Part shown: piece after piece, positions 1,350 to 21,146 of the stretch
Layout of the letters: the number at the start of each line of letters is the position of its first letter
Position numbering within the stretch: position 1 is the first letter of the stretch
IMG/VR virus record: IMGVR_UViG_3300040786_000016
DNA length: 64,000 nucleotides
DNA from: a virus
Reading direction: 5' to 3' (one strand)
Made by a program: the position numbers and the translations under genes
The notes under the pieces: generated by a model
Database searches by the model: none
Told to the model about the DNA's origin: nothing
Seen by the model: only the letters and a program-made list of their open reading frames with translations

Positions 1350-1452
1350 AATTAGAAATATAATTAATTTTAAAAATAAGTCAATAATTGTTTGATAATA
1401 TTAAATAAATAAAATTTTTATTAAAATAAACTTGATATTTAAAAACTTTTCG

Positions 1453-1499
1453 TATATTTGCTTATATTTATTAAACAACGTGGTATAACCACATAAAAT
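1453..1499 (+). promoter_or_regulatory. Tandem promoter for tRNA operon 1: Bacteroidota -7 box plus ATATTTAT motif and GTGGTA..CCAC hairpin
   Basis: TATATTTG at 1453-1460 (TAnnTTTG consensus); TATATTTATTAAACAACGTGGTA also precedes leader 2 (5842-5877). Confidence 0.7.
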
Positions 1500-1509
1500 A
1501 AAAAACAAA

Positions 1510-1584
1510 ATGAAAAATTTAACAATATTATTGGTCCTTGTATTATGTTCACTAGTCGTGAGCACGATGGGTTATAGTTGTTGA
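1510..1584 (+). CDS. Leader peptide 1 (MKNLTILLVLVLCSLVVSTMGYSC), putative attenuator for the Cys/Val/Leu tRNA operon
   Basis: 24-codon ORF; residues 7-17 are 10/11 Leu/Val/Cys; ATGGGTT (1567-1573) is complementary to the terminator 5' arm. Confidence 0.7.
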   Translation: MKNLTILLVLVLCSLVVSTMGYSC

Positions 1585-1608
1585 TTAAATTTAATCATTC
1601 AAAATATG

Positions 1609-1644
1609 AAACCCATTTGAGATAGTAACTTAAATGGGTTTTTT
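1609..1644 (+). terminator. Intrinsic terminator (attenuator) before tRNA-Cys
   Basis: AACCCATTTGA/TTAAATGGGTT stem followed by a T tract. Confidence 0.85.
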
Positions 1645-1646
1645 AT

Positions 1647-1724
1647 GGTGGTGGTAGAGTGGTCGAATGCGCCTGATTGCAAGTCAGGAAATAAACATCG
1701 CTGGTTCGAATCCAGCCCACACCT
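1647..1724 (+). tRNA. trnC: tRNA-Cys(GCA)
   Basis: Anticodon arm CCTGA-TTGCAAG-TCAGG, T arm GCTGG-TTCGAAT-CCAGC, T discriminator. Confidence 0.9.
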
Positions 1725-1751
1725 CAAAACAATTAAATAAAATAAATAGTA

Positions 1752-2071
1752 ATGGTAGAAAACGAAGTTAAAAAGACTTATACAAGTCTAAAGCAATGGC
1801 TAAATTTAGTCATTATGTTAGTGGTAATTTATATTATAAAGTTGAGTTGGCTGATGGGATATATCAATTTCCAATTGCAACAGTAGAAGAAGGGGAAACA
1901 TATATAGTTGCTGTAGCTTCAGATGGAATAGCTAATATTGACGATGTAGTAACAATAGAATTATCACATGATTTAGGTGATACAACTTTCGCTGCTGAAA
2001 TTAAGGGTTCAGATTTAAATAGATGGATTTCAAAGGCAATCAAGAATGGAGAATTTATAAAAGTAGTTTAA
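1752..2071 (+). CDS. Hypothetical protein
   Basis: ORF 1796-2071, extended upstream across an indel. Confidence 0.6.
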
Positions 2072-2083
2072 TACCTACTTATT

Positions 2084-2158
2084 TGGGGTATAGCTCAGTT
2101 GGTTCAGAGTGTCTGTTTTACAAGCAGAAGGTCGTTGGTTCGAATCCAACCACCCTCA
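2084..2158 (+). tRNA. trnV: tRNA-Val(TAC)
   Basis: TCTGT-TTTACAA-GCAGA anticodon arm; TAGCTCAGTTGG D arm; GGTTCGAATCC T arm. Confidence 0.9.
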
Positions 2159-2387
2159 CTAAAAGATAAAGATGACAAAATATGAAAAAATATGTAGATA
2201 GTGATGGGAATTATTTCTACAAATTGAAATTAGAAAATGGGTCTGAATTCACGGTTGAAAAGAGTTAGGTGATTATCTTCATCAACTTGAGCAAACAGTA
2301 AAGGGAGTTGAAAAACCATACAGTTGTAGTTGTGGATTAGGTGACAAGGTTATTGGTGAACACTATTGTCAGAAATGTTTAGGTGAA

Positions 2388-2537
2388 AACCCATTTTATT
2401 GTGTTTAATAATGTTGGTAAATACCAACATATAACCCATTTTATGCGTTTAACGTTGGTAAATACCAACACATAATGTATGTTATATCATACGTTAAAGG
2501 GTTGTTTTAAGTGATAATGTATGATATAACATACATT
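2388..2537. repeat. Two tandem ~43 bp units, each with a GTTGGTAAATACCAAC hairpin, followed by a perfect 19 bp inverted repeat
   Basis: Units 2388-2432 and 2433-2473; AATGTATGTTATATCATAC (2474-2492) and its reverse complement (2519-2537). Confidence 0.85.
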
Positions 2538-2638
2538 AAAATTGTCATCGCAAAATTGCGAAGGACTTGGTAAGTGACTAGTTCACATCAAACGTAATAC
2601 CTAAAGTTACGCTCCCTATATACGGTATAGGGTAATAT

Positions 2639-2720
2639 GCCCGTTGGTGGAATTGGTAGACACGCACGGCTTAGACCCGATGTGCCGAAAGGTGTGTCGG
2701 TTCGAATCCGACAATGGGTA
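2639..2720 (+). tRNA. trnL: tRNA-Leu(TAG)
   Basis: CTTAGAC loop, long variable arm GCCGAAAGGT, GGTGGAATTGGTAGACAC D arm. Confidence 0.9.
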
Positions 2721-2728
2721 CAAAAATA

Positions 2729-2760
2729 AAAAGCTAAAGATTAGGTTCTTTAGCTTTTTT
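2729..2760 (+). terminator. Intrinsic terminator closing tRNA operon 1
   Basis: AAAAGCTAAAGA/TCTTTAGCTTTT stem plus T tract. Confidence 0.85.
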
Positions 2761-2790
2761 TATATATCTTTGTAATCTAAATAAAATAAA

Positions 2791-3230
2791 ATGGAAAACA
2801 TTTATATAACAGAGTATCGTGTAGATAATATTGAAAATCAAGGTAGAGTATTATTTGAAACAGCTAAGTTGGCTAAAGAAAAGGTTTTGATTGGGGTGTA
2901 AAAGCTTACATTGAAACATTGGAACATACTTTAGAGCTTAGTGATGGGAACATTCTTTTCCCCATCACTTACCAAAAGATGGATAATAAAGAATTAGATG
3001 AATATGATGTTTTTCACGCTAAAGCACCAACACAATCTAGGTTGCAAAATGGTTACGAAGTTCATAATATACACCTTAAGCCAGATTTGCCTTGGATTGA
3101 ACATGGTTGGGAATTAAAGGCTTATTCTTTAAAGGGTGGACGTGAATTATTTTCTATAAACAAATATAAAAATATATTTCTTTTGAGCATGTATTAGAGG
3201 CTGGGTTAATTGAAGCATTAAAAGAATAAA
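2791..3230 (+). CDS. Hypothetical protein (split)
   Basis: ORF 2919-3197 with flanking coding-like sequence after a TATCTTTG promoter. Confidence 0.5.
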
Positions 3231-3756
3231 ATGTTAAGTATTAGATTATAGAAAATATTAATTAAAATTATGAAAACATTAGTAATACATCAAAGATGAT
3301 TCAACTTATTTTCTATCAACAATATATGAAGGTAAAGATTGGACAATAATAAACGATAGGCCAGGTAAAAGCTTATTAAAAAACTTATAAAACACATGAT
3401 AGAATTATAATGATGGGTCATGGTTGTGAAAAGGCTTATTTGATTCTAATTTTGACACTGTAATAGATAGTAATTATGTTTATTTATTAAGAGAAATATT
3501 GTGTTTCAATATGGTGTAATGCTGATATTTTCTTTTTTAAAATATGGTCTTAAAGGTTTATATACTGGTATGATAATATCAGATTATACTGAAGCTAATA
3601 TGAATCAGTAAACGCTACATACCATGAAATAGATGAATCAAATTTTCTGTTTGCTAAAGCAATTAAAAATGGTGTTGATAATGAAGATGTGCTTAAAGTA
3701 CAAAAACACTAGTGAAAATTTAAATAGGGTGATTAATTTCAATGAAACTAGAATTT

Positions 3757-4044
3757 ATGAAAAATTATAAATTAGAAAGGTTAGAAAATGGTGAAACTTT
3801 TCACCAAAGAAAAGGGTAATTCTATGAATCCATTGATAAAATCTGGACAAGAACATAGATTAGCACCAGCTACTTGGGAAAGTGTAAATGTGGGTGACAT
3901 TGTTTATTGTAAAAGTGAGTGGTAATTATACACATTTAGTTAAAGCTAAAAAACCTAGATAAAGGTTGTCAAATTGGTAATAATAGAGGTGGTATAAATG
4001 GATGGACCAAACAAGTATATGGTAAAGTAATTGAAGTTTTATAA
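3757..4044 (+). CDS. Peptidase S24/S26-like domain protein (split)
   Basis: KEKGNSMNPLIKSGQ...VGDIVYCKVSG...THLVKA, the G-x-S-M-x-P motif of S24/S26. Confidence 0.5.
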
Positions 4045-4360
4045 AAAATGTTAGTTTATATCTATTTTTTATGTATCTTTGCGTATTATTAATTTATAAT
4101 TAAAATTATATGAAAATTTTTTGAATATAGAATGATTGACTATGATATGTTTGATGAAGATATGTCAGTTGAAATCGAGGGTTTAACTTCTAGGGGTTGG
4201 AAAATAATTAGAATACTAGACCCATTACCATGGAAGAGTGATTATGATGGTATGTTCATTAGAATTTTCTATCAACGTAAAATAAAAAATAACTAGTTAT
4301 TTAAAAACAATATAATATGAAAATATCTGAAATTAATATAATAATATAAAAATAAAAATT

Positions 4361-4848
4361 ATGAAAATACTAATAGAAAATTATAGAAAGTGGGAAATAT
4401 ATTTTGATACTGATAGTGAAGAATTTTACACACTATCAAATCAATATGATAAGGAAAACACTAAAAAAGTTTTGCATCAACAAAAAAATATATTGATGAT
4501 TACATAAAAGAAAATAGTTCATTTAAACCTGTTATGGTTCAAAAATTTGAAACGACATTTTCTAGTGCTGAAATTATAAAATTGGTAGGTATACGAAAAG
4601 ACAATAAATTTATGTATGAAGATAAAAATGGTAAGATTAAACAATTGTCAACATATGATGAAAAAAATTATTTTTTAGTTAATACTGAGAATGATAAAAT
4701 AGAGTTAAAAATTAAAGAATTATTAGTAGATAAAGACAAAATTATTCGACAAGTGAAAGAAATGGAAAAACGGTTAATTAAAGTAGATGTTATAGAAATT
4801 AGGAAAGTATACTTGGCAAAGAATATTCAAAGTAAAATCTATAATTAA
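4361..4848 (+). CDS. Hypothetical protein
   Basis: ORF 4534-4848 plus upstream frame. Confidence 0.55.
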
Positions 4849-5140
4849 TGATAGTATATAAATTATTTAGACAATTAAAAAATGGTGATATAACACCATT
4901 ATTTATAAATAAAACAAAACGCTTACCTTTTAATGAATGGATGAATGCTGAATCTCATCCAACAAAGGGTTTGCTCTTAGACCGTTTTGGCATTGTACAT
5001 CAACACCAAGTGCCCCTCATTTATCAGAAAAGGTAGGGTATGGTTAAAAGTGGAAATTGAGGATTTTACTGAATTTCAAAGACCAGATAATCAAGGTGGT
5101 AAATGGTATTTGTAATAGAATGAAAATAATTGAAAAATTA
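4848..5140 (+). CDS. Hypothetical protein
   Basis: ORF 4848-5036 continuing across an indel (…WHCTSTPSAPHLSEKGRVW…). Confidence 0.55.
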
Positions 5141-5504
5141 TAGTATGGGACATATAAAGATATGACACCAGAACAAAGACGTGATTTTTTAGCATTTTCT
5201 TATTTAAGGAACAAAGAAGCTAGGGTAGGTAATTCTTTTGCCTACTTCAATCAAAAGTTTGGGACGAACAGGAAAAAAAAGGTTGGTTAATGTATAATGA
5301 TTTTAGTAGAGGTCATAATGATGCAACGAAGTCACAATTAGAAGCTGAAGAAGTGGTTAAAACCCTTAGGTCTGATGGTAATTATGCTAGGATTATATGT
5401 GGTTATGTTCAAACAAAACAAAAGTAAAACATTTTACGGTTATATACAAACTAAAAAATAAATAAGATGTTTTAATATGTTGTGATATTTATTAATAAAA
5501 TATT

Positions 5505-5735
5505 ATGGGAGCAAATAAAGAACAAATATTATCTATTATTAGATATTCATTAACAACTATAGGGACTATTTTAGTGACAACTGGAACATTAAATTCATTA
5601 ATGGTATTTCAAATAGGTGGTGGTATTATGGCATTAATATCTGGAATTTGGTCAATTCTTGACAAAACAGATTCTAACATGGCAATTAAAATGGCAGAAT
5701 ATCAAGCTAAATTAGAGGCTGAAAAGGTTAATTAA
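5505..5735 (+). CDS. Small two-helix membrane protein (holin-like)
   Basis: KEQILSIIRYSLTTIGTILV...GGGIMALISGIWSILDK; preceded by the ATATTTAT motif. Confidence 0.55.
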   Translation: MGANKEQILSIIRYSLTTIGTILVTTGTLNSLMVFQIGGGIMALISGIWSILDKTDSNMAIKMAEYQAKLEAEKVN

Positions 5736-5741
5736 ATAAAT

Positions 5742-5877
5742 AAATTAAAAATAATTACAAAAGACTTGCTTTATCTAAATAAGTGTAGTATATTTGCATA
5801 AGAATTAAAACAAAGAAAAATAGTCTTTTATAAAAAAAGCGTATATTTATTAAACAACGTGGTAAAACACATAAAAT
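5742..5877 (+). promoter_or_regulatory. Promoter cassette for tRNA operon 2
   Basis: TATATTTG at 5789-5796 and ATATTTAT at 5843-5850; 5742-5835 is nearly identical to 19579-19673. Confidence 0.8.
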
Positions 5878-5885
5878 TAAAAACA

Positions 5886-5975
5886 ATGAGAACACTTAAC
5901 AACATATTTGATTTTGCATTTTTTGCAGCCGAAGAGGATTACTCTTTCGGAAGGTCATCTCTTGTCATAAGTTAA
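5886..5975 (+). CDS. Leader peptide 2 (MRTLNNIFDFAFFAAEEDYSFGRSSLVIS), putative attenuator for the Phe/Asp/Ala/Glu tRNA operon
   Basis: 29-codon ORF; residues 8-18 FDFAFFAAEED; AGGTCA (5952-5957) pairs with TGACCT (6007-6012) in the terminator. Confidence 0.8.
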   Translation: MRTLNNIFDFAFFAAEEDYSFGRSSLVIS

Positions 5976-5998
5976 CGAAACTCGTTTAACATAAATTG

Positions 5999-6030
5999 AT
6001 AAAGTCTGACCTAATAAGTCAGACTTTTAT
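5999..6030 (+). terminator. Intrinsic terminator (attenuator) before the first tRNA of operon 2
   Basis: AAAGTCTGAC-CTAATAA-GTCAGACTTTT. Confidence 0.8.
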
Positions 6031-6048
6031 GTAATAAAAATAAATAAT

Positions 6049-6120
6049 GGGACTGTAGCTCAGTTGGTAGAGCGAGGGACATGAAGTCCTGCGTCACAGA
6101 TTCGATTTCTGTTGGTCCCA
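6049..6120 (+). tRNA. trnF: tRNA, probably Phe(GAA); anticodon loop garbled
   Basis: Clear D and T arms; loop reads CATGAAG inside an AGGGA/TCCT stem. Confidence 0.65.
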
Positions 6121-6236
6121 CAAATTAAATTAAAATATGGAAAATTATTTAGAAGAAATAGAATTGACTGAAAAAAATTGTTAGTGTTAAAAAATAAACA
6201 AAAGAATTAGTTAGGGTTATTAAAAATACGAATAAA

Positions 6237-6450
6237 ATGGGTTTCAATAGGAAAGAACATTTTAAAAGTGGTGATATAGTTCTATTTAATGGGTTTGGGT
6301 TAATCATAGCTAAAATTACTGGGAGAAGTGATATAAATGGTAGGGTTGGTTATAATATCGGTAATTCCATGCATTTTGACCATAGTGTTATTAGAGAGGC
6401 GACTATGAATGAGATTAAAATGTTAGGAGAAAAAATCTTTAACTTTAAAA
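6237..6450 (+). CDS. Hypothetical protein inside the tRNA operon
   Basis: MGFNRKEHFKSGDIV...; the track ORF runs on into the tRNA, true end about 6450. Confidence 0.5.
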
Positions 6451-6459
6451 TAAAAATAA

Positions 6460-6531
6460 GGTGCTGTAACTCAGCGGTAGAGTGTTGGTTTGAAGAACCG
6501 ATGGTCGTGGGTTCGAATCCCACTGGCACCA
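6460..6531 (+). tRNA. trnF: tRNA-Phe(GAA)
   Basis: TTGGT-TTGAAGA-ACCGA arm; GGTGCTG/TGGCACC acceptor. Confidence 0.9.
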
Positions 6532-6595
6532 CAAAATATGGAACAACATTGGTCCCGTAATGCCATGGCTCGTGCACGAGTTACGGGACACCTAT

Positions 6596-6668
6596 GCTGC
6601 GTTCATCTAGGGGTTAGGATTTCAGGTTTTCAGCCTGACCACATGGGTTCGATTCCCATACGCAGTAC
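6596..6668 (+). tRNA. trnE: tRNA-Glu(TTC)
   Basis: TCAGG-TTTTCAG-CCTGA arm. Confidence 0.9.
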
Positions 6669-6703
6669 TATCTGGTTAAGATTCCAGTAATAAAATCTAA
6701 ATT

Positions 6704-6778
6704 GGTCTATTCGTTCAACGGCTAGGATGCTACCCTGTCACGGTAGAGATGAGAGTTCGATTCTCTCATAGACCGCCA
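6704..6778 (+). tRNA. trnD: tRNA-Asp(GTC), CCA encoded
   Basis: CTACC-CTGTCAC-GGTAG arm; G discriminator then CCA. Confidence 0.92.
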
Positions 6779-6904
6779 AGTTTACGTAAGCGATACTTAC
6801 TTTAGAAGTAAACAACTCATTGACGTTGTGTGACATATAAACTATGAGGTTGTGAAAGCAATATGGTTTCAATGAGAGTAACGTGTTATTCAAAGTCACA
6901 AAAT

Positions 6905-6975
6905 GCTCCTGTCGTCTATCGGTTGGGACATCAGGTTTTCGACCTGAGAAGGAGGGTCGATTCCCTTCGGGAGTA
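6905..6975 (+). tRNA. trnE: tRNA-Glu(TTC)
   Basis: TCAGG-TTTTCGA-CCTGA arm; GTCGTCTATCGGTT D arm. Confidence 0.85.
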
Positions 6976-6987
6976 CAAAATTAAATT

Positions 6988-7058
6988 GGGACTATAGTAC
7001 AACGGCTAGTACGATGCGCTTGCACCGCATAGATGGGGGTTCGGTTCCCCTAGCTCCA
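6988..7058 (+). tRNA. trnA: tRNA-Ala(TGC)
   Basis: ATGCG-CTTGCAC-CGCAT arm; G3-U70 wobble in the acceptor stem. Confidence 0.9.
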
Positions 7059-7075
7059 CAAATTTAAATAATATT

Positions 7076-7310
7076 ATGGTTAAAAGTGAGTTATGGAAAT
7101 TACAATTAGATAATATAAAAGTATATCTAAATAATAATGGACTGAACGTTGATAAAGTTATAAGGTGGCAAGGTGGTTTCGCACATGGAGGAACTAAACA
7201 TGGTTTAACAATAATAACAACGGTAATTATTAATGGTGAGGAAAAAGGTTTTACATTCCAAGACTAGCACTTACGGATAATGAAGTACTACAATTTTAGT
7301 AGTTAATAAT
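7076..7310 (+). CDS. Hypothetical protein inside the tRNA operon
   Basis: ORF 7076-7267, probably extended by an indel. Confidence 0.45.
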
Positions 7311-7325
7311 TTAAATTAAATAAAT

Positions 7326-7394
7326 GGCCCGTTCGTCTATCGGTTAGGACGCTCGGTTTTCAACCTAGAAAGAGGGTTCAACTCCTACGGGCTA
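7326..7394 (+). tRNA. trnE: tRNA-Glu(TTC)
   Basis: TTTTCAA loop; GGCCCGT/ACGGGCT acceptor. Confidence 0.8.
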
Positions 7395-7400
7395 CAATAA

Positions 7401-7474
7401 TCGAGGTAAGGTCCACTGGCGAAGGATACCCGTCTGTCACATGGGTGAACTGGTTTCGAATACCAGTATCTCGG
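7401..7474 (+). tRNA. trnD: tRNA-Asp(GTC), divergent body
   Basis: CCCGT-CTGTCAC-ATGGG arm; CTGGT-TTCGAAT-ACCAG T arm. Confidence 0.8.
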
Positions 7475-7572
7475 CAAAATAAAGAGTTCGAATTCTTGAC
7501 TATTTACAAAAATATGTTATGATTGTAAAAGAGTTCGAATTATGGAAAACAAATAATTGTGTAACCATAACC

Positions 7573-7597
7573 CATCAGTTTTAATTTAAAACTGATG
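7573..7597. terminator. Hairpin between the convergent tRNA operon 2 and the minus-strand gene
   Basis: CATCAGTTTT/AAAACTGATG. Confidence 0.65.
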
Positions 7598-9671
7598 ATG
7601 TTTAGGTTTATTTTCCAGATACTACTATTACAAAACTTGAATTACCACTAGCGTCAAATTTTTCGTAAGCTAAATCTTTATTAAAATTGAAATTATTTAA
7701 TTTCAAATCAAATAAGCTAGTTCAAAATCATAAACATAACCAAAGTAACCTTTATTAGGTTTTGGTTGACAAAAGTATTTAAATTTATCTCACTACCATA
7801 AACTGATGCATTATTTTTATATTGGGTTAAGTACATTTTACCAGATATTGAGGATACACCACCTATTCTAGTTATAAATATTGATGCATTTACATTTAAA
7901 TCATTAAGGATAAATGTGTCTACTCGATTACAACCAAATATTGAGTTTAATATTATTGACGATGATGAAATATTATATTGTGAAAACTCATTTACAGAAG
8001 GACTAGTATATCCATTACCAAAAGTTGAATTATATACTCTACCGCTATTAGTTATACTACCATTAGCTAAAAGTACACTATTCGAAAATGTATTATAATT
8101 ATCGATAGCCATAGCGTCTAATGCTTTAATATTTACTATTTCACCAATATTATCAATATTAGCTGACGTTAAAATGTTGAATCAGTAATGCTACCAATCT
8201 TTGATGATACGTATATTTTACGGCTACTACCATATCTTTGACCATAATCAGCAAATACTGTATTATTTAAATTAGTGACGTTTATGGAAGAAACAATATC
8301 TTTTGGGTAATTATTTTCTAATGGGATTATAGTAAAATCTTTTGCTGCTGTTTTCCCAGTTGATGTTAAACCACTAAAAATAGATAATGGTAGACTTATA
8401 TTCACACTATATGTTGTTTCGGAATTACTAATTGGAAATCTATAAGCTGAACCAACGGAAGGTGCGCTGGTTGTACCACTAATAAATGGATTATCGACAT
8501 TTTAGCTAAATCAGTATATGCATTTATCTCATAAGGTTCAGATAAAAGATATGCATTATTCACGTTAACACCAGTGTTGCTTATTGTGCAAAAATTTATA
8601 CCACCCATAGAATAAATTGTAGAACCACTAGTCCCACTAAAACCACTAGCTGATTTTTTAAAATTATACCATTCCAATTGTCTGTGTCTAATTTATATCT
8701 TCTATATTTTTGTTCTCTCAATCTTTATTTATTGATATTGACCCATCTAAATTTTCTCTACTTAAAATAAAACCATTTCTAGTACCAATTTGATTTGAAT
8801 TCTCATCATAAATAATATTATCTAAAAAATCGTATTTTAATTTATCACCAGCGTAAGTAACACTTTCAGCTTCTCTTGAAAAGAGTCAACAGCTATTGCT
8901 GTTAATATTATAGTTTCTACTTTAGGTACTGTGTTCTCAGCAGCACTCATTGACATATATTCAGTACCATCATGTACCTCAGTATTTAAAATACCACTTG
9001 GTTTAATTACTGGTTTTACCATAAATATCGTTTATTACAATATTAGAAGGTATATTAGGATATCTTTTTTTGAAAATTGTATTTGTATTCCGATATCATT
9101 AGCATAAGTTAATCTAGGTGAAAATGATATATAACCAGCGTTAAAGTAATCAAGGATATTAACATAGCTACCAGTAGTAGTACTCGCACCACTAGGTGCG
9201 TAAACACATAAAACGGTATCGCCATCAGCGGCAATAGTATCTGGAACGTTATCAAATTGTGAATAAGCACCAGAAGAACCGATAATAGTGTGTATTTCTG
9301 TTCTATCACTTGAGTTTGTACCATTTATTTGGTAAATAGTTTTATAATCATTCAATACATAACGGTTACCAACAGTTAAACCACTAGAATTAACTAAATC
9401 TGTCAATTGACTATAAGAACCAGTAACGAATTCAATTTTAGTTGGTAAATTAAAATATGTTGTTGCTGAGATTGTAGAACCTTTTAGACCATTAGTAAAA
9501 TTTGTGGTACCACTTATAGTGCCCCAGTAAAATTGGTATCTATTCTAGGTTTAAGATACGTTACTAAGTCGGTTAAATCAGTTCGTACTGTAGTGTTATC
9601 GATAACAACTGGTATTATTGAATTTGGGGTTAATATACCAACGGCTAATTCGCTTATTTTTTATCTGACAT
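7580..9671 (-). CDS. Large Gly/Ser/Thr/Asn-rich protein, probably virion structural or tail-fibre-like (many indels)
   Basis: Collinear minus-strand ORF fragments 9406-9035, 8677-8402, 8405-8169, 8112-7717; start MSDKKISEL...; ATATTTAT motif upstream. Confidence 0.55.
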
Positions 9672-11155: not shown

Positions 11156-11259
11156 ATAATTAGTTCTATGAGGGGTTGTAAAAGATAATCATAGGTAATT
11201 ATGTCAGAAGTCCTACAGACATAACTAATGTAAATAGTGTGGTATAAAACCATACAAAT

Positions 11260-11333
11260 GGTGTGATAGCTCAGTCTGATAGAGCACTGGCCTGAAAAGT
11301 CAGGTGTCGGTGGTTTAAATCCATCTCCCACCA
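11260..11333 (+). tRNA. trnF: tRNA-Phe(GAA)
   Basis: CTGGC-CTGAAAA-GTCAG arm. Confidence 0.85.
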
Positions 11334-11417
11334 CAAATTAGTGAGCCATTATAAGGTGATAAGACTGCGACAATATCGAGGATAGTAAGTGTATCGCAAC
11401 ATTTGCCCTCTCACTAA

Positions 11418-11488
11418 GTGAAAGTACCTTAATGGATAAAGAACCTGTGTCGAACAGGTGCATGCGAGTTCGAGTCTCGTCTTTCACA
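11418..11488 (+). tRNA. trnR: tRNA-Arg(TCG), non-canonical position 33 as read
   Basis: ACCTG-TGTCGAA-CAGGT arm; GGATA D loop (A20); GTGAAAG/CTTTCAC acceptor. Confidence 0.7.
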
Positions 11489-11666
11489 CTATAAACAGAG
11501 TATTGATTCTGATTATGACGTAATAATATCGACCTAGGAAGAGATGTTATTATGGCGATTTCAATAGTTAAGTGGTAACTTTATATCATGGGTTATTCGT
11601 TGGCCCCTACACCCAGTAGAAAACTGAATAAACAAAAAATGATACCATTGGGGAATGGTATCAAAT

Positions 11667-11736
11667 GCGAGAATAGCTCAGCGGTAGAGCGTACCTATAA
11701 AACGGGATGTCGATGGTTCAAATCCATCTTCTCGCA
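11667..11736 (+). tRNA. tRNA, anticodon unresolved
   Basis: GCGAGAA/TTCTCGC acceptor with canonical D and T arms; anticodon arm garbled. Confidence 0.75.
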
Positions 11737-11751
11737 CTAGAATTTTATCAA

Positions 11752-11812
11752 GGGTAGTTAACCTAGTGGTTAGCTGTACATTATAGTGTGGGCTCGAATC
11801 CCAAACTACCCA
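11752..11812 (+). tRNA. Short or degenerate tRNA-like element
   Basis: GGGTAGT/ACTACCC acceptor, TGGG-CTCGAAT-CCCA T arm, shortened D and anticodon arms. Confidence 0.45.
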
Positions 11813-11832
11813 CTAACATTAAATAATTTAAT

Positions 11833-12006: not shown

Positions 12007-12007
12007 T

Positions 12008-12340: not shown

Positions 12341-12346
12341 AATAAA

Positions 12347-12712: not shown

Positions 12713-12896
12713 AATACTAACTTTACGTCTAATTATAAATAAAAACAATAGGGTGATATAGATTAATTTTTATATCACCCTATATTTTACCTAGACATTT
12801 AAACTTTTATTAAAAAATGTTGATTTTTATTTGGTAGTATCATTTATTTAATATACATTTGTACTCAATAAAAATAACAACTTAAAATAATATAAA

Positions 12897-13630
12897 ATGG
12901 GATTTAAAGATTTAATCGGTAAAGCGGTATTCGCTGATTATGTTTCAGAGGAAGAACCAAAACAGTTACACCAAAACAAGTAGTTCAGTCTACAAAATTT
13001 CCAAGTGCTCAAACAGAAGTTATAGAACCAGAACCAGTTTCTAAATCTATGTTTGGTTTTTCAGGACCAGTATCTACAACACCTACTTTTCTACAACTAT
13101 AAGTGATGGTGTGATTAACGCTGAACATTTAGAAAAAGCAATTGAATTGTATCAAAGTGGGTTTGATAATTTAAATCAGCCTGGATTTGATTTTTATGAA
13201 TATTATCAATTAGTTATGAATGGTGGTGTAACTAACCCACAATTTACACTATGGCTTTTACTATGGCGAATACTATGGACAAGTTAGTTACTAAAGTAAG
13301 TTTAATTTCACAATCTGATTTTTATATTAGTGAAATAACTAAGCAGTATGATGGTTTTGTTAGTAAAGGTAATCTAAAAAGAAGAATTAGAACAGCAAAA
13401 AACTAATGAAAATCAAAGTTTAGTTAGCGAGTTAAATACGATGAGAGAGCAGTTGGAAGCAATAAAGGTTCAAATTAATGACCGTGAAAAAAACTTTCAG
13501 CTATAGGTTCTAAATATGACCCACTACTTAACGATGTTAATAGTAAACTTTCTGCTAATACACAAGCCAAGAATTTAATAACACAATCAATAGAACAAGT
13601 TAAACAAGGAATTAATAATAATTTAAAATA
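12897..13630 (+). CDS. Coiled-coil hypothetical protein, first gene of the ABC/OmpA module
   Basis: Joined frames ...LNQPGFDFYEYYQ...; follows a TACATTTG promoter. Confidence 0.55.
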
Positions 13631-13633
13631 AAA

Positions 13634-14758
13634 ATGGGAACAGAAACTAAATTTAAAAACGCACCAACATTAAACGCTAATTTAATGAACTTGCCTATGA
13701 TGAAGAATTATAGTCAGAGTGAAATTGTCACAAAAGTAGATACATTTAGAAAGGGTGAGAAAAACCTTTTGGTTTCTAAAATTAGCAACAGTAATTGGTG
13801 TAGGTTACCTATCATGGGTTTATATATTACCACAAGTGTTTCAAATGCTTGGTAGGTGGATAGCAATAGCTTCTACTGGTATATTTTAATTTTCTTGTAG
13901 TTGCCGCACCAGCAATATTTGCTTGGGTACGTACATTAGCGAGCTTTACATGCAAGTGCTATTAAATTTGACCCTTTTGGTCAGTTAGGGTTACAGAGAC
14001 AAAAAAATGCTTGCGAATCAATCAACATTCCGTATTGCTAAAGCTAATTTACAAATGTTAGGTCAAGACATGTTGAATGAATCTAAAAATGCTCAAATAG
14101 ATGCTGAAAATGGTCAAAAAAAGTATTAAAACTTAGAGGTAAAGCTGAGAATATTAGAAGTGAGATGGAAAAGCTAGTTAGTACATTAGGTGTTGCGGCT
14201 AAAGAAGAAGATGAATATGTTAATTTTGCGGCTGAGTTACATAAAACACTAGCAAAATCAATTCAAGTTGCTAACAAAACAAAACAATCACAAGAATTTA
14301 CAGTTAAGTTTGGTTCTCGTGGTAGTGTTTTGAAAAAGTTAATCAAAAGTTAGTAATGGTTGAAGCTAATATGGATGTTAAAATTTCTGATTTTGATGTA
14401 ACAGTTGAAATGCTTAAGAAAGATTTTGCAACTGGTCAAAAAATTAAAATCAGCAACAAATGCCGCAGTATCAGTACTAGGGTTTAAAGATGATTGGGAA
14501 CGTGATTTAGCTTTAGACACTCTTGCAAACACTATTTCTGCTGATATGGCTATAAGTATGGGTAACTTTAAAGATATTGAGACCCTTACAAGTAATTATG
14601 ATTTAAATTCTGATGAATTATTTGAGAATTTGAATGCGATTGCTGATAAAATATCAACTGGGAATGACCCAATTGTTACCGCTAAAAATATAATAACCCT
14701 GATTACGTTCTAACCCAAGATGATAAATCAAAATCACAATTTGGTGAAATGTTCTAAT
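13634..14758 (+). CDS. Membrane-anchored coiled-coil protein, second gene of the ABC/OmpA module
   Basis: N-terminal hydrophobic segments, then the heptad-rich ORFs 14165-14353 and 14405-14713. Confidence 0.55.
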
Positions 14759-15016
14759 ATGTAATCATATTAATTAAAATTAAAAACTGTTCGAGTAGCC
14801 TTGGTGACTATGTATCCCAAGGTAAAGTAGTGGACAAATATATATATGGATGGCCGAGCCTAATGAGTAAGTAGGAAATCAAAGGAGTTTTAAATCGCAT
14901 GGGTAGTTTCTCTAATGGTTATAAAAAATTAAATTAAAATTTATTTGGTGGTTTAAAAAAGTTCTTATCTTTGTACCGTTAAATAAAACAAATATTAATA
15001 ATTAAAATAAAAAAAA

Positions 15017-16815
15017 ATGGGAAGACTTCTTAAAATTAGTAAATTAACAACTGGTATCGAGGTTGTAATTTCAGCAATCGCAATTGCAATTGTTTTAACT
15101 GGAATTAGTTATTTTGCGCCTGGTATGAGTGTTGCAATTTCAAAACAATTAACCTTTAATAGTATCAATTCTGATAATATTAATAACGTAACTAAAGGTG
15201 CTGAATTACCTTTACCGAGTGAATCAACATCCTCAAAGTTTCTGGTCAAGGTCTTATACGTATTGCAGAATATGCTTGGAATGGTAATTCGGGTATGATT
15301 GTCGCAAACGGTGGTCCTAGAACAACAGAAGGTTCACTTATGGAATCGTCTAATGTAAATTTAGAGATTGTAAGACAAGATATGGTTGGTGGTTTACGTG
15401 ATATGCAAATTAAATTCGTTGAAGAATTTGATAGCGGTGTAGCTTATCCTAAATCAGATAAATCAGCTTTTGCTGTATCTATAATGGGTGATGGTGTCCC
15501 TTTTATATTGCAACTACACAAAAATCCTTAGATGAAAAATTTGGTAGGGTAAATACCATGTACAAGTACTTGGGGCTTATGGGTTATCATATGGTGAGGA
15601 TAAATTAATCGGACCAAGAATTTGGAAAGATAATCCGCAAAGTATGAAGGGTTGTGTTATTTCATCAGTGATTGGTGATGGTGACTGGGTTGTTGCGATA
15701 AACTATGCTTTTGCTAATAAAATTGCTGTTAATCCTGATGCTACAACATATGATGCTAATGCTATTAACTTTGTACCATCACAAGATGATGATTATATTA
15801 ACTCGGTTAAAGAATTGATTAAATCTCAAAAAACTGGTTATACAGTACCATTGGATGAGGTTATTGATGGTAAAAGAACTGGTAAAAGATTAACCATAAA
15901 ATTGATGGTGCAACTACATGGACACCTGGTGATAAGATGGCATTTGATGCTTTAAGTGGCTTCACTGATGTTGTATCAACTAAAGACTTTGTAAACCAAA
16001 TGGCAACAACATTAGTAGGTGTTAAAGAATGGGCTTTGTTACACGATAAAGAGGTTATTAGTATATTAAAACAAACATATACAGCTTCTAACCAAATGAA
16101 GTTATATGATTCATGGGCAGTAAGAGCATCTGAAGCGGTTGCAAAACATACGCATTTGAAACCCTAAATACTGGTATGATTTATTTAAAGGACAAAAGGT
16201 GAAAAGATGGTTTATCATACAATATTGGTGGTTCAAGAGTGTTTAATTATGCTGATGCAATGCAATATTATGGAATTACTGATGGGAATAATAGATATAA
16301 AGCAGTGTATGACCAAGTATCTAGTTACCTAGTAGATTTAAACCATGTGGTTTTAATGAAACATGTAAAGATGGTGTTGTTCCTTATGAAGATGCTGTAA
16401 ATTTATATTTCTTAAAAGTGTTACAGATGTTGATGCTGGTAAAAAAAAATCACATATACCGAAACTAAAACTGAAGTAATGGCAAATGGTCAGTGGGTAT
16501 TAACTTTCAGACTGGTAGTAACGCAATTAATGGTTCAACTAAAGATTTAGAGACGATTTATAACTTGCTAGTACAAGCTGAACAAGCTAAATTAAAAGTT
16601 ATTGGACATACAGATAATACTGGTAATTCTAATAATAATATAACTTTATCTAAAGGTCGTGCTAATTCAGTTGTTGCTTATTTAACAAATAGGGTATTTC
16701 AGCTGACCGTTTTCAATTAGTTGATGGTAAAGGTGATTCATCTCCAATAGCTGATAACTCAACTGCTTCAGGTAAAGCTAAAAATCGTAGAGTAGAAATT
16801 ACGTTGTTAAAATAA
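15017..16815 (+). CDS. ABC substrate-binding protein (NMT1/TauA-like) fused to a C-terminal OmpA domain
   Basis: N-terminal TM segment, periplasmic-binding-type region, then INFQTGS...VIGHTDNTG...NITLSKGRANSV...KAKNRRVEI OmpA motif. Confidence 0.8.
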
Positions 16816-16930
16816 CAAATTATAAACATAAAACCCTAATATAAACTATTAGGGTTTTTATTAAAATTAGGTATTGTTAGATATTATCTATATATTTGCA
16901 ATCTAATTAAAACAATTAAAATCTAGTAAA

Positions 16931-17699
16931 ATGTTTAAAAAATTTTACACCGTTTCAAGAACTTAAACGTTCTTATAAAACAATTATGGTAACTACATGG
17001 TTATTATTAATGTTCTCATTTTGGTTTTAGTATCTTCTATAGGTACAACGCATCTTTCCCAACACCTATACAAGTCTTAACTGGTTTAGTTGATGTATGG
17101 AATGATGGTTTAATTATGCATTTATTTAATTCGTTATCTTTATGTTTCCAAGCTATTTTTTATTCCATTATTATATCTATGGTATTTGCTTATCTAACTA
17201 CAATATCATTTACTAAATCGTTAGGTACTTTCTTATCTAAATTAAGATATTTACCACCGACTGGAATTGCCTTTATGTAACTATTATGGTAAGTAACGCA
17301 AGAACAATTCAAGTTTGGGTGCTTGTAATATTTATGTCAACATTTTAATCACAAGTCTTATACAAATGATTAAAGATATCCCAAATGAAGAATTTGACCA
17401 TGCTAAAACGCTAGGTTGTAATAGATGGGAAATTCTATGGAAGTAGTGATTAAAGGTCGTATTGATTATGTTATTGAACTAGTTAGACAAAACTTAGCAA
17501 TTGTATGGGTTATGTTAGTTACTGTTGAGAGTATTCTTATTGCCGCTGGTGGTTTAGGTGTTCTAATTAAAAATGGAGATAGACTTGGTGCTAATGGTCG
17601 TGTTATTGCAGTACAAGGTATTATAATATTAGTTGGTATTTCTTTAGATTTTTATTAACTAGATTACGCAAATTATTATTCACATATTCAAATTATTAA
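16931..17699 (+). CDS. ABC transporter permease (NitT/TauT family)
   Basis: Hydrophobic frames with ...EEFDHAKTLGCNRWEILWEVVIKGR... EAA-like loop. Confidence 0.8.
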
Positions 17700-17703
17700 A
17701 ATT

Positions 17704-18518
17704 ATGTCATATAAAGAAACAAAACGTTATTATATATTGATAACCTAACAGTAGGTTATGGTGATAAAGCAATACTTAAAGATATCAATTTTGATGTCAA
17801 AGATGTAGTAAGAGAGGGTGTAAATTCAACAGGTCAGATAATCGCATTTATTGCTAGGTCTGGTTATGGTAAATCAACACTTTTCAAAGCATTAACTGGT
17901 TTGATTAAACCAATGGATGGTCAAATATTAATAACAAACCTATCTACTGAAGATGAAGAAGACGCTAAACCTTTAAGTGAAGGTGACATGGGGTTTGTAG
18001 ACCAAAATACACACTTTTAGACACAAAACTATATTAGGTATCTGTAACTATGCTTTGAGGAAAAGTAAGCTACAAAGGTGGAAAAGATACTATAATTGAT
18101 GAATATTTAAATACTTGGGGTTAACTGAGCATAAGGATAAGTATTCTTGTGAATTATCTGGTGGGCAACGTCAAAGAACTGCAATTATTGAGCAAATGTT
18201 AACATCTAAACATTTTATGATTTTAGATGAACCATTTTCTGGTTTAGATGTTGGTAATATAGAAAAAGTTAAATTATCATTTGATAAAATTAGTGCGGCT
18301 AATGAATTAAATACTATAATATTCTCAACACACGATATTCGTCTTGCAGTTGAATTATCGGATAGTATCTATATTCTAGGTAAGCATGGGAAGACCCAAG
18401 TTGCGCTACAATAATTAAACATTATGACCTTAAAGCTATGGGTTTAGCTTGGGAACCATTTAATGATGGGCATAGAAAATTACACCATGAGATTCATGAT
18501 TTAGTACTTAATACATAA
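17704..18518 (+). CDS. ABC transporter ATP-binding protein
   Basis: Walker A ARSGYGKST, signature LSGGQRQR, Walker B ILDEPFSGLD, STHD switch. Confidence 0.9.
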
Positions 18519-18940
18519 ATAATTAGTAACAAAAACTAAAAGGGTTAGAGATTTTACATTTATAATAGCTAATACAAATAGTTTTACTTATTAAAAAAAA
18601 AACGTATATTTAGTTTTAGATGATATTTATAATAAATAATAGTATTAAATACTAAAATATGGATAGTGATAGTAAAACGAACAAAATAAACAGGAAAGCA
18701 TTGGGGACAAGTTCTTTAATGATAGCGACATTTCTGAATCCTTTAGGGTACGATATATTAGTTTACAAATTAACGCAATTAACAAAAGATTATTGATTAC
18801 AATGTTCGTTCTCTATATTTGTGCGTTCCTATCATTTATATCATCATTTATTTCATTTAAAATAGGTAATAAATTTTGGGGAATATCCTAATCACATTTG
18901 CATTATTTTTAAACCCTTTGGTTATGATATAGTAGTTTAT

Positions 18941-19520
18941 ATGATTAATTTAGTGTTTAACGATTATTGGCTAACGATGATTATAATGTATGTGTTAGCT
19001 GGGTATTTTTTTAGTTTATCACTATACTTTTACAATATAAACCCAATTAGGGTTTTAAAATATAATTTAATAAAATTAAATAGAAAAATAAATAGGAAAA
19101 TGGATAAGAACTTTGATGAACTTTTGATGAATTTTGATGAATTTTCTAAGGGTAAAAATAAATTAGAAATTGAAACTAATAAATTTATTGATTTGATATC
19201 GGATATATCAAATCATAATAAAGGTGGTGAAGATACTAGTGAAATTGAAACTAATTTAGAAAATAAGTTAGGTGAACCAGATTCAGTAACTTATTATTAT
19301 GAAGATGGTTTATTCGTTGAGAAAAGTGCATGGAAACAAGCTAGTGGCTTAGTAATAAGAACAATTAAACAAAAAAAACCATTTGATGGTGAAAAGTTTT
19401 AGCACCAGAACTATTAATAAACGAACAATTAGAAATCGCCATTATTAATGAAGATTATGAGAATGCTGCTATATTAAGAGATAAAATCAAAAAATTTAAA
19501 AGACAAGCAAATAAGAAATT
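18941..19520 (+). CDS. Membrane-anchored protein with a C-terminal UVR (UvrB/C) motif
   Basis: ORF 18941-19402; next frame EQLEIAIINEDYENAAILRDKIK. Confidence 0.55.
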
Positions 19521-19578
19521 ATCATTATTAGTAACCAATATAAAAGTCTAAGGACTAGTAACCAACTAGTTATAAAAT

Positions 19579-19690
19579 AAATTAAAAATAATTATAAAAA
19601 GACTTGTTTTATCTAAATAAGTGTAGTATATTTGCATAAGAATTAAAACAAACAAAAATAGTCTTTTATAAAAGACATATATTTATAACA
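19579..19690 (+). promoter_or_regulatory. Promoter cassette for tRNA operon 3 (copy of 5742-5835)
   Basis: TATATTTG at 19627-19634, ATATTTAT at 19679-19686. Confidence 0.8.
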
Positions 19691-19718
19691 AATAGAGAAA
19701 TCTAAAATAAAAGAAATT

Positions 19719-19793
19719 ATGAAAACAATGACCACATATCAACCAAAACAGTATACGCAAGGCGGACTCCGCAGTGCAAACTGGGTATGTTAA
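19719..19793 (+). CDS. Leader peptide 3 (MKTMTTYQPKQYTQGGLRSANWVC), putative attenuator for the Tyr/Pro/Thr/Lys/Gly/Gln tRNA operon
   Basis: Residues 2-16 use only K,T,M,Y,Q,P,G; AACTGGGT (19779-19786) is identical to the terminator 3' arm. Confidence 0.85.
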   Translation: MKTMTTYQPKQYTQGGLRSANWVC

Positions 19794-19847
19794 GTTGTCA
19801 AGATTTAACCACGATATAAATGTAGAGTAAAACCTATATAAAATCAG

Positions 19848-19882
19848 ACCCAGTTCAGAGTAAAATCTAAACTGGGTTTTTT
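19848..19882 (+). terminator. Intrinsic terminator (attenuator) before tRNA-Tyr
   Basis: ACCCAGTT...AACTGGGT stem plus TTTTT. Confidence 0.85.
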
Positions 19883-19900
19883 ATGTTAAAAAATTAAATT

Positions 19901-19981
19901 GGGGTCCGCTAGAGTCGGAGAGCTAGGGCGGTCTGTAACACCGTTGCGAAAGCTGAATAGGTTCGAATCCTATGGTCCCCA
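19901..19981 (+). tRNA. trnY: tRNA-Tyr(GTA)
   Basis: GCGGT-CTGTAAC-ACCGT arm; long variable arm GCGAAAGC. Confidence 0.9.
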
Positions 19982-20050
19982 CAGAGAAGAGACTGTTACT
20001 AATTCATAGGACACCAAGGTAAAGTACTGGAAGCGTAGAATTAGAAATCA

Positions 20051-20141
20051 CTAGATGTGAAGGCAATTGGAAGCCGACTCCACTTGGAATGGAGAAGTAG
20101 TGTTAAAACGCTCAATGCGAGTTCGAGTCTCGTCTTCTAGA
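20051..20141 (+). tRNA. trnP: tRNA-Pro(TGG) with an unusually long variable arm
   Basis: CTCCA-CTTGGAA-TGGAG arm; C1-G72 and A73; 22 nt variable region. Confidence 0.8.
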
Positions 20142-20148
20142 CAAAATG

Positions 20149-20224
20149 CGTCCCATAGCTTAAATGGTAAAGCGGCATCCATGAGGGGTGTATGGATTGG
20201 AGGTTCGAGCACTCTGGGAGGCCA
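20149..20224 (+). tRNA. tRNA, anticodon unresolved (CAT present in the loop region; Met possible)
   Basis: TAGCTTAAATGGTAAAGC D arm and GGTTCGAG T loop; anticodon arm garbled. Confidence 0.6.
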
Positions 20225-20228
20225 AATT

Positions 20229-20301
20229 CGGGGTATAGCTTATATGGTAAAGCACTGGCTCGCTGTCAGTTTAATGGTAGGTTCGAACACTCCTACCCCG
20301 A
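20229..20301 (+). tRNA. tRNA with a Pro-like body; anticodon garbled
   Basis: CGGGGTATAGC start, TACCCCG-A end (C1-G72, A73). Confidence 0.65.
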
Positions 20302-20315
20302 CAAAAAATTAAAAT

Positions 20316-20389
20316 GCTATATACGCATAAACGGTGGTGCACAACATTTGTAACGTTGAATAGACTCGGTTCGATTCCGAGATATAGCT
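20316..20389 (+). tRNA. trnT: tRNA-Thr(TGT)
   Basis: TTTGTAA loop; GCTATAT/ATATAGC acceptor. Confidence 0.85.
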
Positions 20390-20482
20390 CTAAAATTAAA
20401 TAATATAGATTATGAAAAATATAAAGAACATAAAGAATAAACAGTAACTACCTTCAATGCGTTGAGGGATAGTAATAACTAT

Positions 20483-20554
20483 GGCTTCAAAACATTGCTG
20501 GCGATGTACTCGGCTTTTAACCGAGGAAAATGAGTTCGATTCTCATTGGGGCTA
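20483..20554 (+). tRNA. trnK: tRNA-Lys(TTT)
   Basis: CTCGG-CTTTTAA-CCGAG arm. Confidence 0.88.
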
Positions 20555-20571
20555 CTAGATTATATTAAATT

Positions 20572-20646
20572 GCATCTATAGCCAAAATGGAATAAGGCAC
20601 CTAACTTTTAATTAGGGCTGTCTGGGTTCGAGCCCCAGTGGATGCA
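20572..20646 (+). tRNA. trnK: tRNA-Lys(TTT)
   Basis: CCTAA-CTTTTAA-TTAGG arm. Confidence 0.9.
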
Positions 20647-20665
20647 CAAAATATAATATATAAAA

Positions 20666-20741
20666 CTGGGTGTAGACTAATTGGTAAGTCGCCTACCTTG
20701 GACGTAGGACATTATTGCAGGTTCGAAGCCTGTCACCCAGA
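20666..20741 (+). tRNA. trnP: tRNA-Pro(TGG)
   Basis: CCTAC-CTTGGAC-GTAGG arm; C1-G72, A73. Confidence 0.9.
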
Positions 20742-20874
20742 CGAAATTAGTAACAATACAATGTGTCGAAAGCATTGGTTACATTGCGATTAGAGCCACA
20801 ATGGGAAGTACGAAAGGAGTAATTAACCAGACGTAAGGGTTCGGTATAGTGATTAACCTTCCTTAATTTTATTT

Positions 20875-20946
20875 GCAGAAGTAGCTCAATGGTAGAGCAC
20901 TAGATTTCCAATCTGGGGGTTGCGAGTTCGAGCCTCGTCTTCTGCT
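20875..20946 (+). tRNA. trnG: tRNA-Gly(TCC)
   Basis: CTAGA-TTTCCAA-TCTGG arm; T discriminator. Confidence 0.92.
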
Positions 20947-21020
20947 CTGTGTTCAGTTTAGTCGAATGTTCATGATAATGAACAACCGAATATAATGAAC
21001 AACATACTGGAATAATATAA

Positions 21021-21089
21021 TGGGGTAGGATGTGATGGTTGCATACAACTCTTTGACAGTTGCTGATAAAGTTCAATTCTTTACCCCAA
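21021..21089 (+). tRNA. trnQ: tRNA-Gln(TTG)
   Basis: CAACT-CTTTGAC-AGTTG arm; T1-A72. Confidence 0.8.
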
Positions 21090-21146
21090 CAATAATATAT
21101 TCGAATAGCATTGACTAATTGAATTACTTTAAGTATCTTTGTTTAT

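Follow-up and report, generated by a model that had tools for sequence, protein, structure and literature searches.

Putative leader-peptide attenuators matched to the tRNA operons of a phage and its relatives

Introduction

In enterobacteria, transcription attenuators such as those of ilvGMEDA (Ile/Val/Leu), thr (Thr/Ile), trpL, hisL, leuL and pheL have a short open reading frame (ORF) close to the promoter, with a run of regulatory codons. It is followed by an intrinsic terminator and an overlapping antiterminator, whose upstream strand is the place where the ribosome decides the outcome. Here, we analysed a 64,000-nt stretch of viral DNA (IMG/VR record IMGVR_UViG_3300040786_000016; hereafter the window, to whose positions coordinates refer unless a contig is named), in which three tRNA operons are each preceded by a unit with this anatomy. 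A short ORF with its own start, a run of cognate codons, an intrinsic terminator and a mutually exclusive antiterminator that can be masked were all found, in sequence or in folding. As in the ilv and thr leaders, a single leader would sense several amino acids.

The regulated genes set these units apart. Described attenuators of this family control genes for amino-acid biosynthesis, amino-acid transport or aminoacyl-tRNA synthetases, whereas we found tRNA genes downstream, together with small and HNH-like ORFs. Unlike the enterobacterial attenuators, the phage units would control tRNA genes rather than biosynthetic enzymes, with up to seven amino acids for one leader. Four phage leaders partition all 20 amino acids, and the setting is viral, with Bacteroidota-type promoters. 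The E. coli pheST attenuator, with the leader peptide pheM, controls a component of translation for the same amino acid that it senses. It differs from the phage units in that it is cellular, senses one amino acid and controls an aminoacyl-tRNA synthetase.

T-boxes also place a terminator/antiterminator switch in a 5' leader, report tRNA charging and control translation-related genes. Unlike the phage units, they have no ORF and contact the tRNA itself by means of a specifier loop and the T-box motif. A cmscan of window 1-26000 against Rfam, with E up to 1, gave no match to the leader families (Trp, His, Leu, Thr, Phe and others) and no hit to the T-box model RF00230; the place of the leader is occupied by an ORF. 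Apart from tRNAs, this search returned five low-scoring hits to unrelated families, none of which reached its gathering score.

For more than 50 years, there has been debate about the reasons for tRNA genes in phages (PMC10264068). Phage tRNAs have been described as replacements for host tRNAs lost to depletion or cleavage in the course of infection (PMC10264068, PMC11464382, PMC11555353), and this replacement would be the need answered by a sensor. Neither PMC10264068 nor the opinion piece PMC11025619 mentions an attenuator, a leader, a terminator or a promoter of phage tRNA genes. The initial annotation of this stretch knew of no described attenuator for tRNA operons, and our full-text literature searches also found no description of one.

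Results

Three tRNA operons with a common upstream plan

On the + strand, ARAGORN detected 26 tRNA genes between 1648 and 23237. Most were confirmed by Rfam, which added one more at 20316-20389. In three units on this strand, starting at 1432 (A), 5766 (B) and 19604 (C), the same plan was found: a Bacteroidota-type promoter, a short A-rich 5' untranslated region (UTR), an ORF of 24-29 codons starting with ATG, a hairpin with a T-run and then the first tRNA gene. This shared architecture had been proposed in the initial annotation, and our coordinates place every element where it was expected. The spacing between terminator and first tRNA is 2-21 bases, too short for an additional promoter. Because of this, the first tRNA can be reached only by read-through of the hairpin.

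The promoters are predicted from sequence. All three have a -33 TTG and a -7 TATATTTG box at the usual spacing, which we take to represent the Bacteroidota consensus (-33 TTG, -7 TAnnTTTG). When compared to shuffled sequences, leader folding had z values of -5.0 (A), -3.4 (B) and -4.4 (C).

In unit A (C/V/L), the boxes are at 1432-1434 and 1453-1460. A small 5'-UTR stem-loop (GTGG..CCAC, 1480-1492) is located 5' of the start codon, and such stem-loops, with differing stem sequences, are also present in other leaders. The leader ORF (1510-1584) has 24 codons and encodes MKNLTILLVLVLCSLVVSTMGYSC, with the regulatory run LLVLVLCSLVV at 1528-1560; an identical leader was found on a 99%-identical contig. 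The upstream strand of the antiterminator, here called region 2, is GATGGGTT at 1566-1573 and pairs with AACCCATT of the terminator 5' arm. The terminator has arms at 1609-1621 and 1629-1641, followed by a T-run to 1645, with a folding energy of -15 kcal/mol. The tRNA-Cys gene starts only 2-3 bases further, at 1648.

In unit B (F/E/D/A), the -33 TTG and -7 TATATTTG boxes span 5766-5796, and another -7-like box is found further on, at 5842-5855. Its leader ORF (5886-5975, 29 codons from the ATG) encodes MRTLNNIFDFAFFAAEEDYSFGRSSLVIS, with the run FDFAFFAAEED at 5907-5939. Region 2, AGGTCA at 5952-5957, pairs with TGACCT at 6007-6012, where the 5' arm of the terminator (6001-6028) meets its loop. 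The T-run of this terminator is short in the window assembly. In relatives, it is a run of seven T, with compensatory changes in the stem, and one relative carries the compensatory variant AGGTCGAG with CTCGACCT.

In the case of unit C (P/Q/Y/T/G/K), the promoter boxes (19604-19634) are followed by a palindrome (19661-19676), a second box (19678-19689) and a 5'-UTR stem-loop (19693-19704). The leader ORF (19719-19793) has 24 codons as assembled and encodes MKTMTTYQPKQYTQGGLRSANWVC, with the regulatory run KTMTTYQPKQYTQGG at 19722-19766. Region 2 is AACTGGGT at 19779-19786, the same sequence as the 3' arm of the terminator (19846-19882), and it pairs with ACCCAGTT.

Relatives and a fourth leader

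Relatives were collected with a 23-base motif spanning the -7 box, which is conserved upstream of leaders at 27 viral-contig loci, and with a conserved small gene behind one leader class, which gave more. The resulting set contains 27 distinct leaders from approximately 20 contigs, and two further class D leaders were seen besides. All 27 have an ORF of 24-34 codons. Terminators of -12 to -18 kcal/mol, followed by a T-run, are likewise present in 27 of 27, with compensatory changes in the stems. A DNA search of a cultured-phage collection gave only matches at the level of tRNAs.

Four classes of leaders were found, given here with their typical cores. In class A, the core is ILVLCLCVLVL and the tRNAs are Cys, Val and Leu. 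In class B, the core FDFAFFAAEED is found with Phe, Glu, Asp and Ala. Class C has the core TYTYYQPKTQGGKTP with Pro, Gln, Tyr, Thr, Gly and Lys, and class D has the core INNMINSINWRHNSRS with Trp, Ser, His, Ile, Met, Asn and Arg. The four amino-acid sets have 3, 4, 6 and 7 members, do not overlap and together contain all 20 amino acids.

Class D corresponds to a prediction of the initial annotation, namely that a fourth leader, rich in R/H/I/N/S/W, would precede another tRNA cluster. We found this leader before a Ser/His/Trp/Asn/Ile/Met/Arg cluster, both in the same phage species and in approximately 10 relatives. A 40.9-kb viral contig, 99% identical to window 1-3000 and reaching 36.6 kb further upstream, was used as a stand-in for the phage genome. 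There, the class D leader is MNTINIHMISISNWRRNSHLMSGMLNTGGTEV, about 23 kb before the window start. Behind it lie a terminator, a small ORF and then the tRNAs, in the order Ser, His, Trp, Asn, Asn, Ser, Ile(GAU), Met/Ile(CAU), Arg, Arg and Ser.

Codon composition of the leaders

The central runs of the window ORFs are composed of the amino acids of the downstream tRNAs, that is C/V/L, F/E/D/A and P/Q/Y/T/G/K. Own-set residues form runs of 7 (A), 11 (B) and 12 (C), with simulated p of 3e-5, 5e-6 and <5e-6 under the amino-acid frequencies of the phage. The match between codon runs and tRNAs in three non-overlapping sets, first noticed in the initial annotation, is in this way borne out numerically. 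Across all leaders, own-set runs have 5-23 residues, and most have a simulated p <5e-6.

For the relatives, background frequencies were taken from their long ORFs, and leader residues were counted before the antiterminator. Class by class, leader composition follows the tRNA sets: the own-set fraction is 0.60 in class A (background 0.15), 0.54 in class B (0.23), 0.95 in class C (0.32) and 0.93 in class D (0.30). The fractions for the other three sets are between 0.01 and 0.27. The highest of these are D-set residues in A (0.24) and B (0.27) leaders, which come from N-terminal N, I and R. Even allowing for relatedness, the match between composition and tRNAs is far beyond chance.

Indels in the core have 3 or 6 bases, while 1-base indels and frame changes are found downstream of the core only. 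A nucleotide motif located there is conserved across three reading frames. Variation at the regulatory columns comprises 33 synonymous codon types, 33 amino-acid changes within the set and 12 outside it. The core is conserved in composition, not in sequence, as if it were read as codons and the tail as RNA. This is what a codon sensor predicts, and not what a functional peptide predicts.

Furthermore, rare synonymous codons are favoured in the leaders when compared to phage genes (mean log fraction -1.19 vs -0.89 +/- 0.04). For Val, GTT makes up 57% of the codons in genes and is absent from the 20 in leaders, of which 18 are GTC or GTG (together 12% in genes). The leaders use 334 distinct codons, compared to 310.5 +/- 6 expected, and cover 121 cluster anticodons, compared to 110.8 +/- 3.4 under synonymous recoding. 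In the six fullest clusters, which were checked for this, 74 of 77 own-set codons have a cognate tRNA within the cluster. The codon-to-anticodon match is significant only in sum, not leader by leader. A biased choice of regulatory and synonymous codons is a known trait of attenuation leaders (PMC1183508).

The antiterminator switch

Region 2 is present in every leader. It has 5-10 bp, starts at codon 19-23 and is complementary to the 5' arm of its own terminator, sometimes extending into the loop. An antiterminator strand at the 3' end of the ORF had been claimed in the initial annotation, and in each unit it is region 2 that pairs with the terminator 5' arm.

Seven distinct compensatory variants were found among the leaders. 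They comprise GGCTGGG with CCCAGCC, ACTGGGC with GCTCAGT and GTCGGGT with ACCCGAC, in addition to the pairs given above (GATGGGTT with AACCCATT, AACTGGGT with ACCCAGTT, AGGTCA with TGACCT, and AGGTCGAG with CTCGACCT). When terminators were permuted among 14 distinct leaders, the cognate duplexes had a mean of -13.5 kcal/mol, against -10.3 +/- 0.66 for the permuted ones, and 0 of 200,000 permutations were as good. Co-variation was counted with anchored scripts; a MAFFT alignment of the class A switch regions put window-type sequences out of register.

For masked folding, a ribosome footprint was masked and the nascent RNA was folded at the stage when the loop has been made and the 3' arm is still missing. 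When the A site is in the core, the pairing probability of the 5' arm is 0.6-0.8. With the ribosome over region 2, this probability drops to 0.2-0.45. The switch that masked folding was proposed to reveal is therefore seen in these predictions. In classes B and D of the relatives, the antiterminator is a bipartite helix, (A)GTCA and GCU with AGC...UGAC(U), and it is the minimum-energy fold every time.

Operons and tRNA-like genes in the window

Operon A (1648-2721, +; ARAGORN and Rfam) contains tRNA-Cys(GCA), a 91-aa ORF, tRNA-Val(UAC), short ORFs and tRNA-Leu(UAG), and is closed by a terminator at 2728-2759. Operon B (6049-7475, +) has a Phe-like gene with an odd anticodon loop, Phe, Glu, Asp, Glu, Ala, Glu and Asp, with two ORFs interspersed. 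For its first tRNA (6049), the anticodon given by ARAGORN is one base off (TGA, not GAA), and synteny with relatives indicates that this gene is Phe.

Operon C (19901-23237, +) contains, in order, Tyr, Pro, two tRNA-like genes (20148-20223 and 20229-20302), Thr, Lys, Lys, Pro, Gly, Gln, an HNH-like ORF (21294-21742), Lys, Tyr and Thr. The first Thr gene of this cluster (20316-20389) was detected by Rfam only. The tRNA lists of the initial annotation agree with ours for A and B. For C, its list was incomplete, as it lacked the two tRNA-like genes and the final Lys, Tyr and Thr up to 23237.

Aberrant anticodon loops were seen in the tRNA-like genes at 6049-6121, 20148-20223, 20229-20302, 11418-11489 and 11667-11737. 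Two of these have a CATGA loop and are called Ser(UGA) by ARAGORN, though they are 73-76 bases long. Further ones are called Ala(CGC) and Phe(AAA). These loops could be assembly indels or deliberately altered loops.

A small cluster at 11230-11810 consists of Phe, an Arg-like gene, a Phe-like gene and one more tRNA-like stretch. It has no leader ORF or terminator in front and is preceded only by a stem-loop resembling the 5'-UTR hairpin of leader A.

The first 29 bases of the unit B promoter are identical in unit C, and near-identical boxes are present in unit D of the same phage. As for the upstream part as a whole, the promoter and 5'-UTR backbone is near-identical in units B, C and D, with ORF cores that are wholly different, so that these units resemble one cassette in which the cores have been exchanged. 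The perfect palindrome GTCTTTTATAAAAGAC lies at 19661-19676 in unit C, flanked by its two promoter-like boxes, and is also present at the same place in units B and D. It may be an operator.

Other features of the relatives

The first gene behind the class D terminator, before the tRNAs, is a conserved ORF of 56-62 aa (consensus MSEERYKKLG..K.KDLE.DFD...LKFVKERGK). It is found at L033:13896-14081 in one relative contig, and likewise behind every class D terminator in the relatives. Searches of the small protein against Pfam and PHROGs gave no match. The neighbourhood of a homologue in a 635-kb uncultured phage contains neither tRNAs nor a leader.

A pair of tRNA-Met(CAU) genes has its own promoter at L033:2380-2762, and also on contigs L010, L022 and L025. 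The gap between this promoter and the tRNAs holds a short conserved ORF with KESVQQ and a structured stretch, with no codon-matched leader. This arrangement may represent a separate control for the initiator tRNA.

In L005 (reverse strand, approximately 640-1300), the first tRNA-Cys is interrupted just past the anticodon by an insertion of about 600 bases. The same was seen in L002 and L006, and the gene of L004 is uninterrupted. Within the insertion are a second tRNA-Cys and an ORF resembling an HNH endonuclease.

Several group members have a tRNA with a CUA anticodon (L033:5128-5200; L013; L045:2717-2787), labelled Pyl by ARAGORN and similar to an amber suppressor. Next to tRNA clusters of relatives, we also found a tmRNA-like match (L041:2327-2679; 46.1 bits vs a cut-off of 47, E 1e-15) and an HDV-like ribozyme match (L045:6935-7003; 42.2 bits vs a cut-off of 44).

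Finally, the region between clusters D and A on the 99%-identical contig (L034:3118-13177) encodes an Rnl1-like (PF09511) and an Rnl2-like (PF09414) RNA ligase. It also has an ATP-dependent DNA ligase, a PARP-like ADP-ribosyltransferase domain, a weak sub-threshold match to an HD domain, and a protein with homologues in phages that overlap annotations as RNase Z / metal-dependent hydrolase. This content suggests a tRNA repair and processing module adjoining the tRNA operons.

Quality of the window assembly

The 64-kb window has only seven ORFs of at least 150 aa, and consecutive ORF fragments sit in shifted frames. Alternative genetic codes were tried as the cause, and none repairs the reading frames. 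When compared to short-read contigs of an ice-metagenome run, the window shows approximately one gap per 125 bases. Given these gaps, and since no alternative code helps, the window is an indel-rich assembly, with indel errors as the cause of ORF fragmentation. The overall unit design is unaffected, as verified on the cleaner relatives.

In the tail of leader C, a 1-base indel (deletion) may have arisen during assembly. A scan with a 17-base pattern for an independent copy of this leader matched unrelated contigs only.

Discussion

Taken together, the units are probably functional ribosome-mediated (leader-peptide) transcription attenuators, located between a phage promoter and a tRNA operon. 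The initial annotation had compared them with attenuation of the trp/his type. Our in silico tests, which cover anatomy, conservation, codon composition, co-variation of the alternative helices and masked folding, support this interpretation.

In the mechanism that we propose, RNA polymerase would start at the Bacteroidota-type promoter and transcribe the short ORF, whose central codons would be read by the tRNA species encoded just downstream. With fast decoding, the ribosome would cover region 2, the terminator hairpin would form and transcription would end before the first tRNA gene. With slow decoding of any core codon, due to scarce charged tRNA, the ribosome would stall upstream of region 2. 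Free region 2 would then capture the emerging 5' arm of the terminator, no terminator would form and the tRNA genes would be transcribed. This would amount to negative feedback on decoding capacity in four channels (C/V/L, F/E/D/A, P/Q/Y/T/G/K and W/S/H/I/M/N/R) that include all 20 amino acids. As the output tRNAs would relieve slow decoding, each unit would be a homeostat for one subset of the tRNA pool.

As for the signal, a tentative reading, which we hold with less than even confidence, is that the four-channel sensor produces tRNAs on demand when those of the host are lost, whether by host shut-off or by defences that cleave tRNA, for example PrrC, RloC, PARIS or retron effectors. If so, the leaders would sample often one codon per isoacceptor, preferentially a rare one, and each would activate exactly the tRNAs that read its codons. 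The tRNA-repair ligases between clusters would work alongside, and the same logic could be general and overlooked in tRNA-rich phages.

The same hardware could instead respond to amino-acid starvation, through uncharged tRNA, with tRNA output tuned to the nutritional state of the host. Attenuators respond to the rate of codon reading, which is set by charged tRNA whatever the cause (PMC1183508), and the sequence does not separate the two inputs. More tRNA would not relieve a shortage of amino acids, however, which would make the feedback futile. The preference for rare codons and the several isoacceptors per amino acid also fit the monitoring of individual tRNA species, and the Rnl1-like and Rnl2-like RNA ligases and the RNase Z-like protein between clusters point to a concern with tRNA integrity. 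We consider starvation an unlikely input, though one with a real chance of being correct. A shortage of tRNA molecules is favoured over it, because extra tRNA does not cure starvation and because the phage encodes these ligases and the RNase Z-like protein between clusters D and A.

Other explanations would remove the ribosome from the decision. The alternative RNA structures could be real and be set by a protein or RNA factor, such as a phage antiterminator or a bound tRNA as in T-boxes. The palindrome between two promoter boxes in units B, C and D (the last upstream of the window) would suit such a factor, as would the conserved 56-62-aa protein encoded directly behind the class D terminator and the fact that Bacteroidota are without strong Shine-Dalgarno signals. 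With this explanation, though, an in-frame run of tRNA-set codons and indels of 3 bases would be needless, and neither a T-box nor any other riboswitch model was matched in the Rfam cmscan. The A-rich stretches that precede each ATG fit translation initiation of the Bacteroidota type, which also counts against it, and we judge it improbable. Still more doubtful, to the point of being very improbable, is that the ORFs are functional micropeptides or are untranslated, with hairpins that are plain promoter-proximal terminators or processing signals and a composition match that is incidental. Small ORFs are indeed common in AT-rich phage DNA, and leader A resembles a hydrophobic signal or membrane peptide. 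Against this, four compositions each fit their own tRNA set across many relatives, core composition is kept and sequence is not, tails shift reading frame and yet keep the RNA motif, and region 2 co-varies with the terminator.

Several observations weigh against attenuation by the ribosome, or limit what can be read from the window. The tRNAs at 11260-11810 have no leader, and for this reason the tRNAs of this phage are not all behind attenuators. In folding, the terminator is always favoured at equilibrium, and therefore the switch must be kinetic; the E. coli trp leader behaves alike, with an equilibrium that favours the terminator. The antiterminator is weak in some class B and D relatives, with 5-6 bp and a second helix of 2-4 bp, and these weak antiterminators, taken singly, are no better than shuffled controls (p 0.02-0.3). 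Off-set residues are present in the leaders, namely Ser in A, Tyr in B, Met in C and N-terminal N/I/R/T in A and B. The sequences are related, and p-values overstate their independence, the independent evidence being closer to four classes times a few lineages. Single-base details of the indel-prone window (the tail of leader C, the T-run of terminator B and the aberrant anticodon loops) are uncertain. Lastly, translation of the ORFs, coupling of ribosome and polymerase, termination, read-through and the regulatory response are what we infer from sequence, and the sole public run with this DNA, from an ice metagenome, is a DNA run.

If the units act as attenuators, the concept would no longer be confined to amino-acid metabolism and would include the tRNA pool. 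A single leader would sense up to seven amino acids instead of one to three, a set of leaders would divide the whole genetic code among its members, and viruses of Bacteroidota would be included. As compact natural reporters, the short leaders could also be used to follow the supply of individual tRNAs. A sensor built into tRNA operons would show which signal is relevant to the phage, that is, slow decoding of exactly the codons read by those tRNAs. With this, the long-standing question of what phage tRNAs are for would become experimentally testable.

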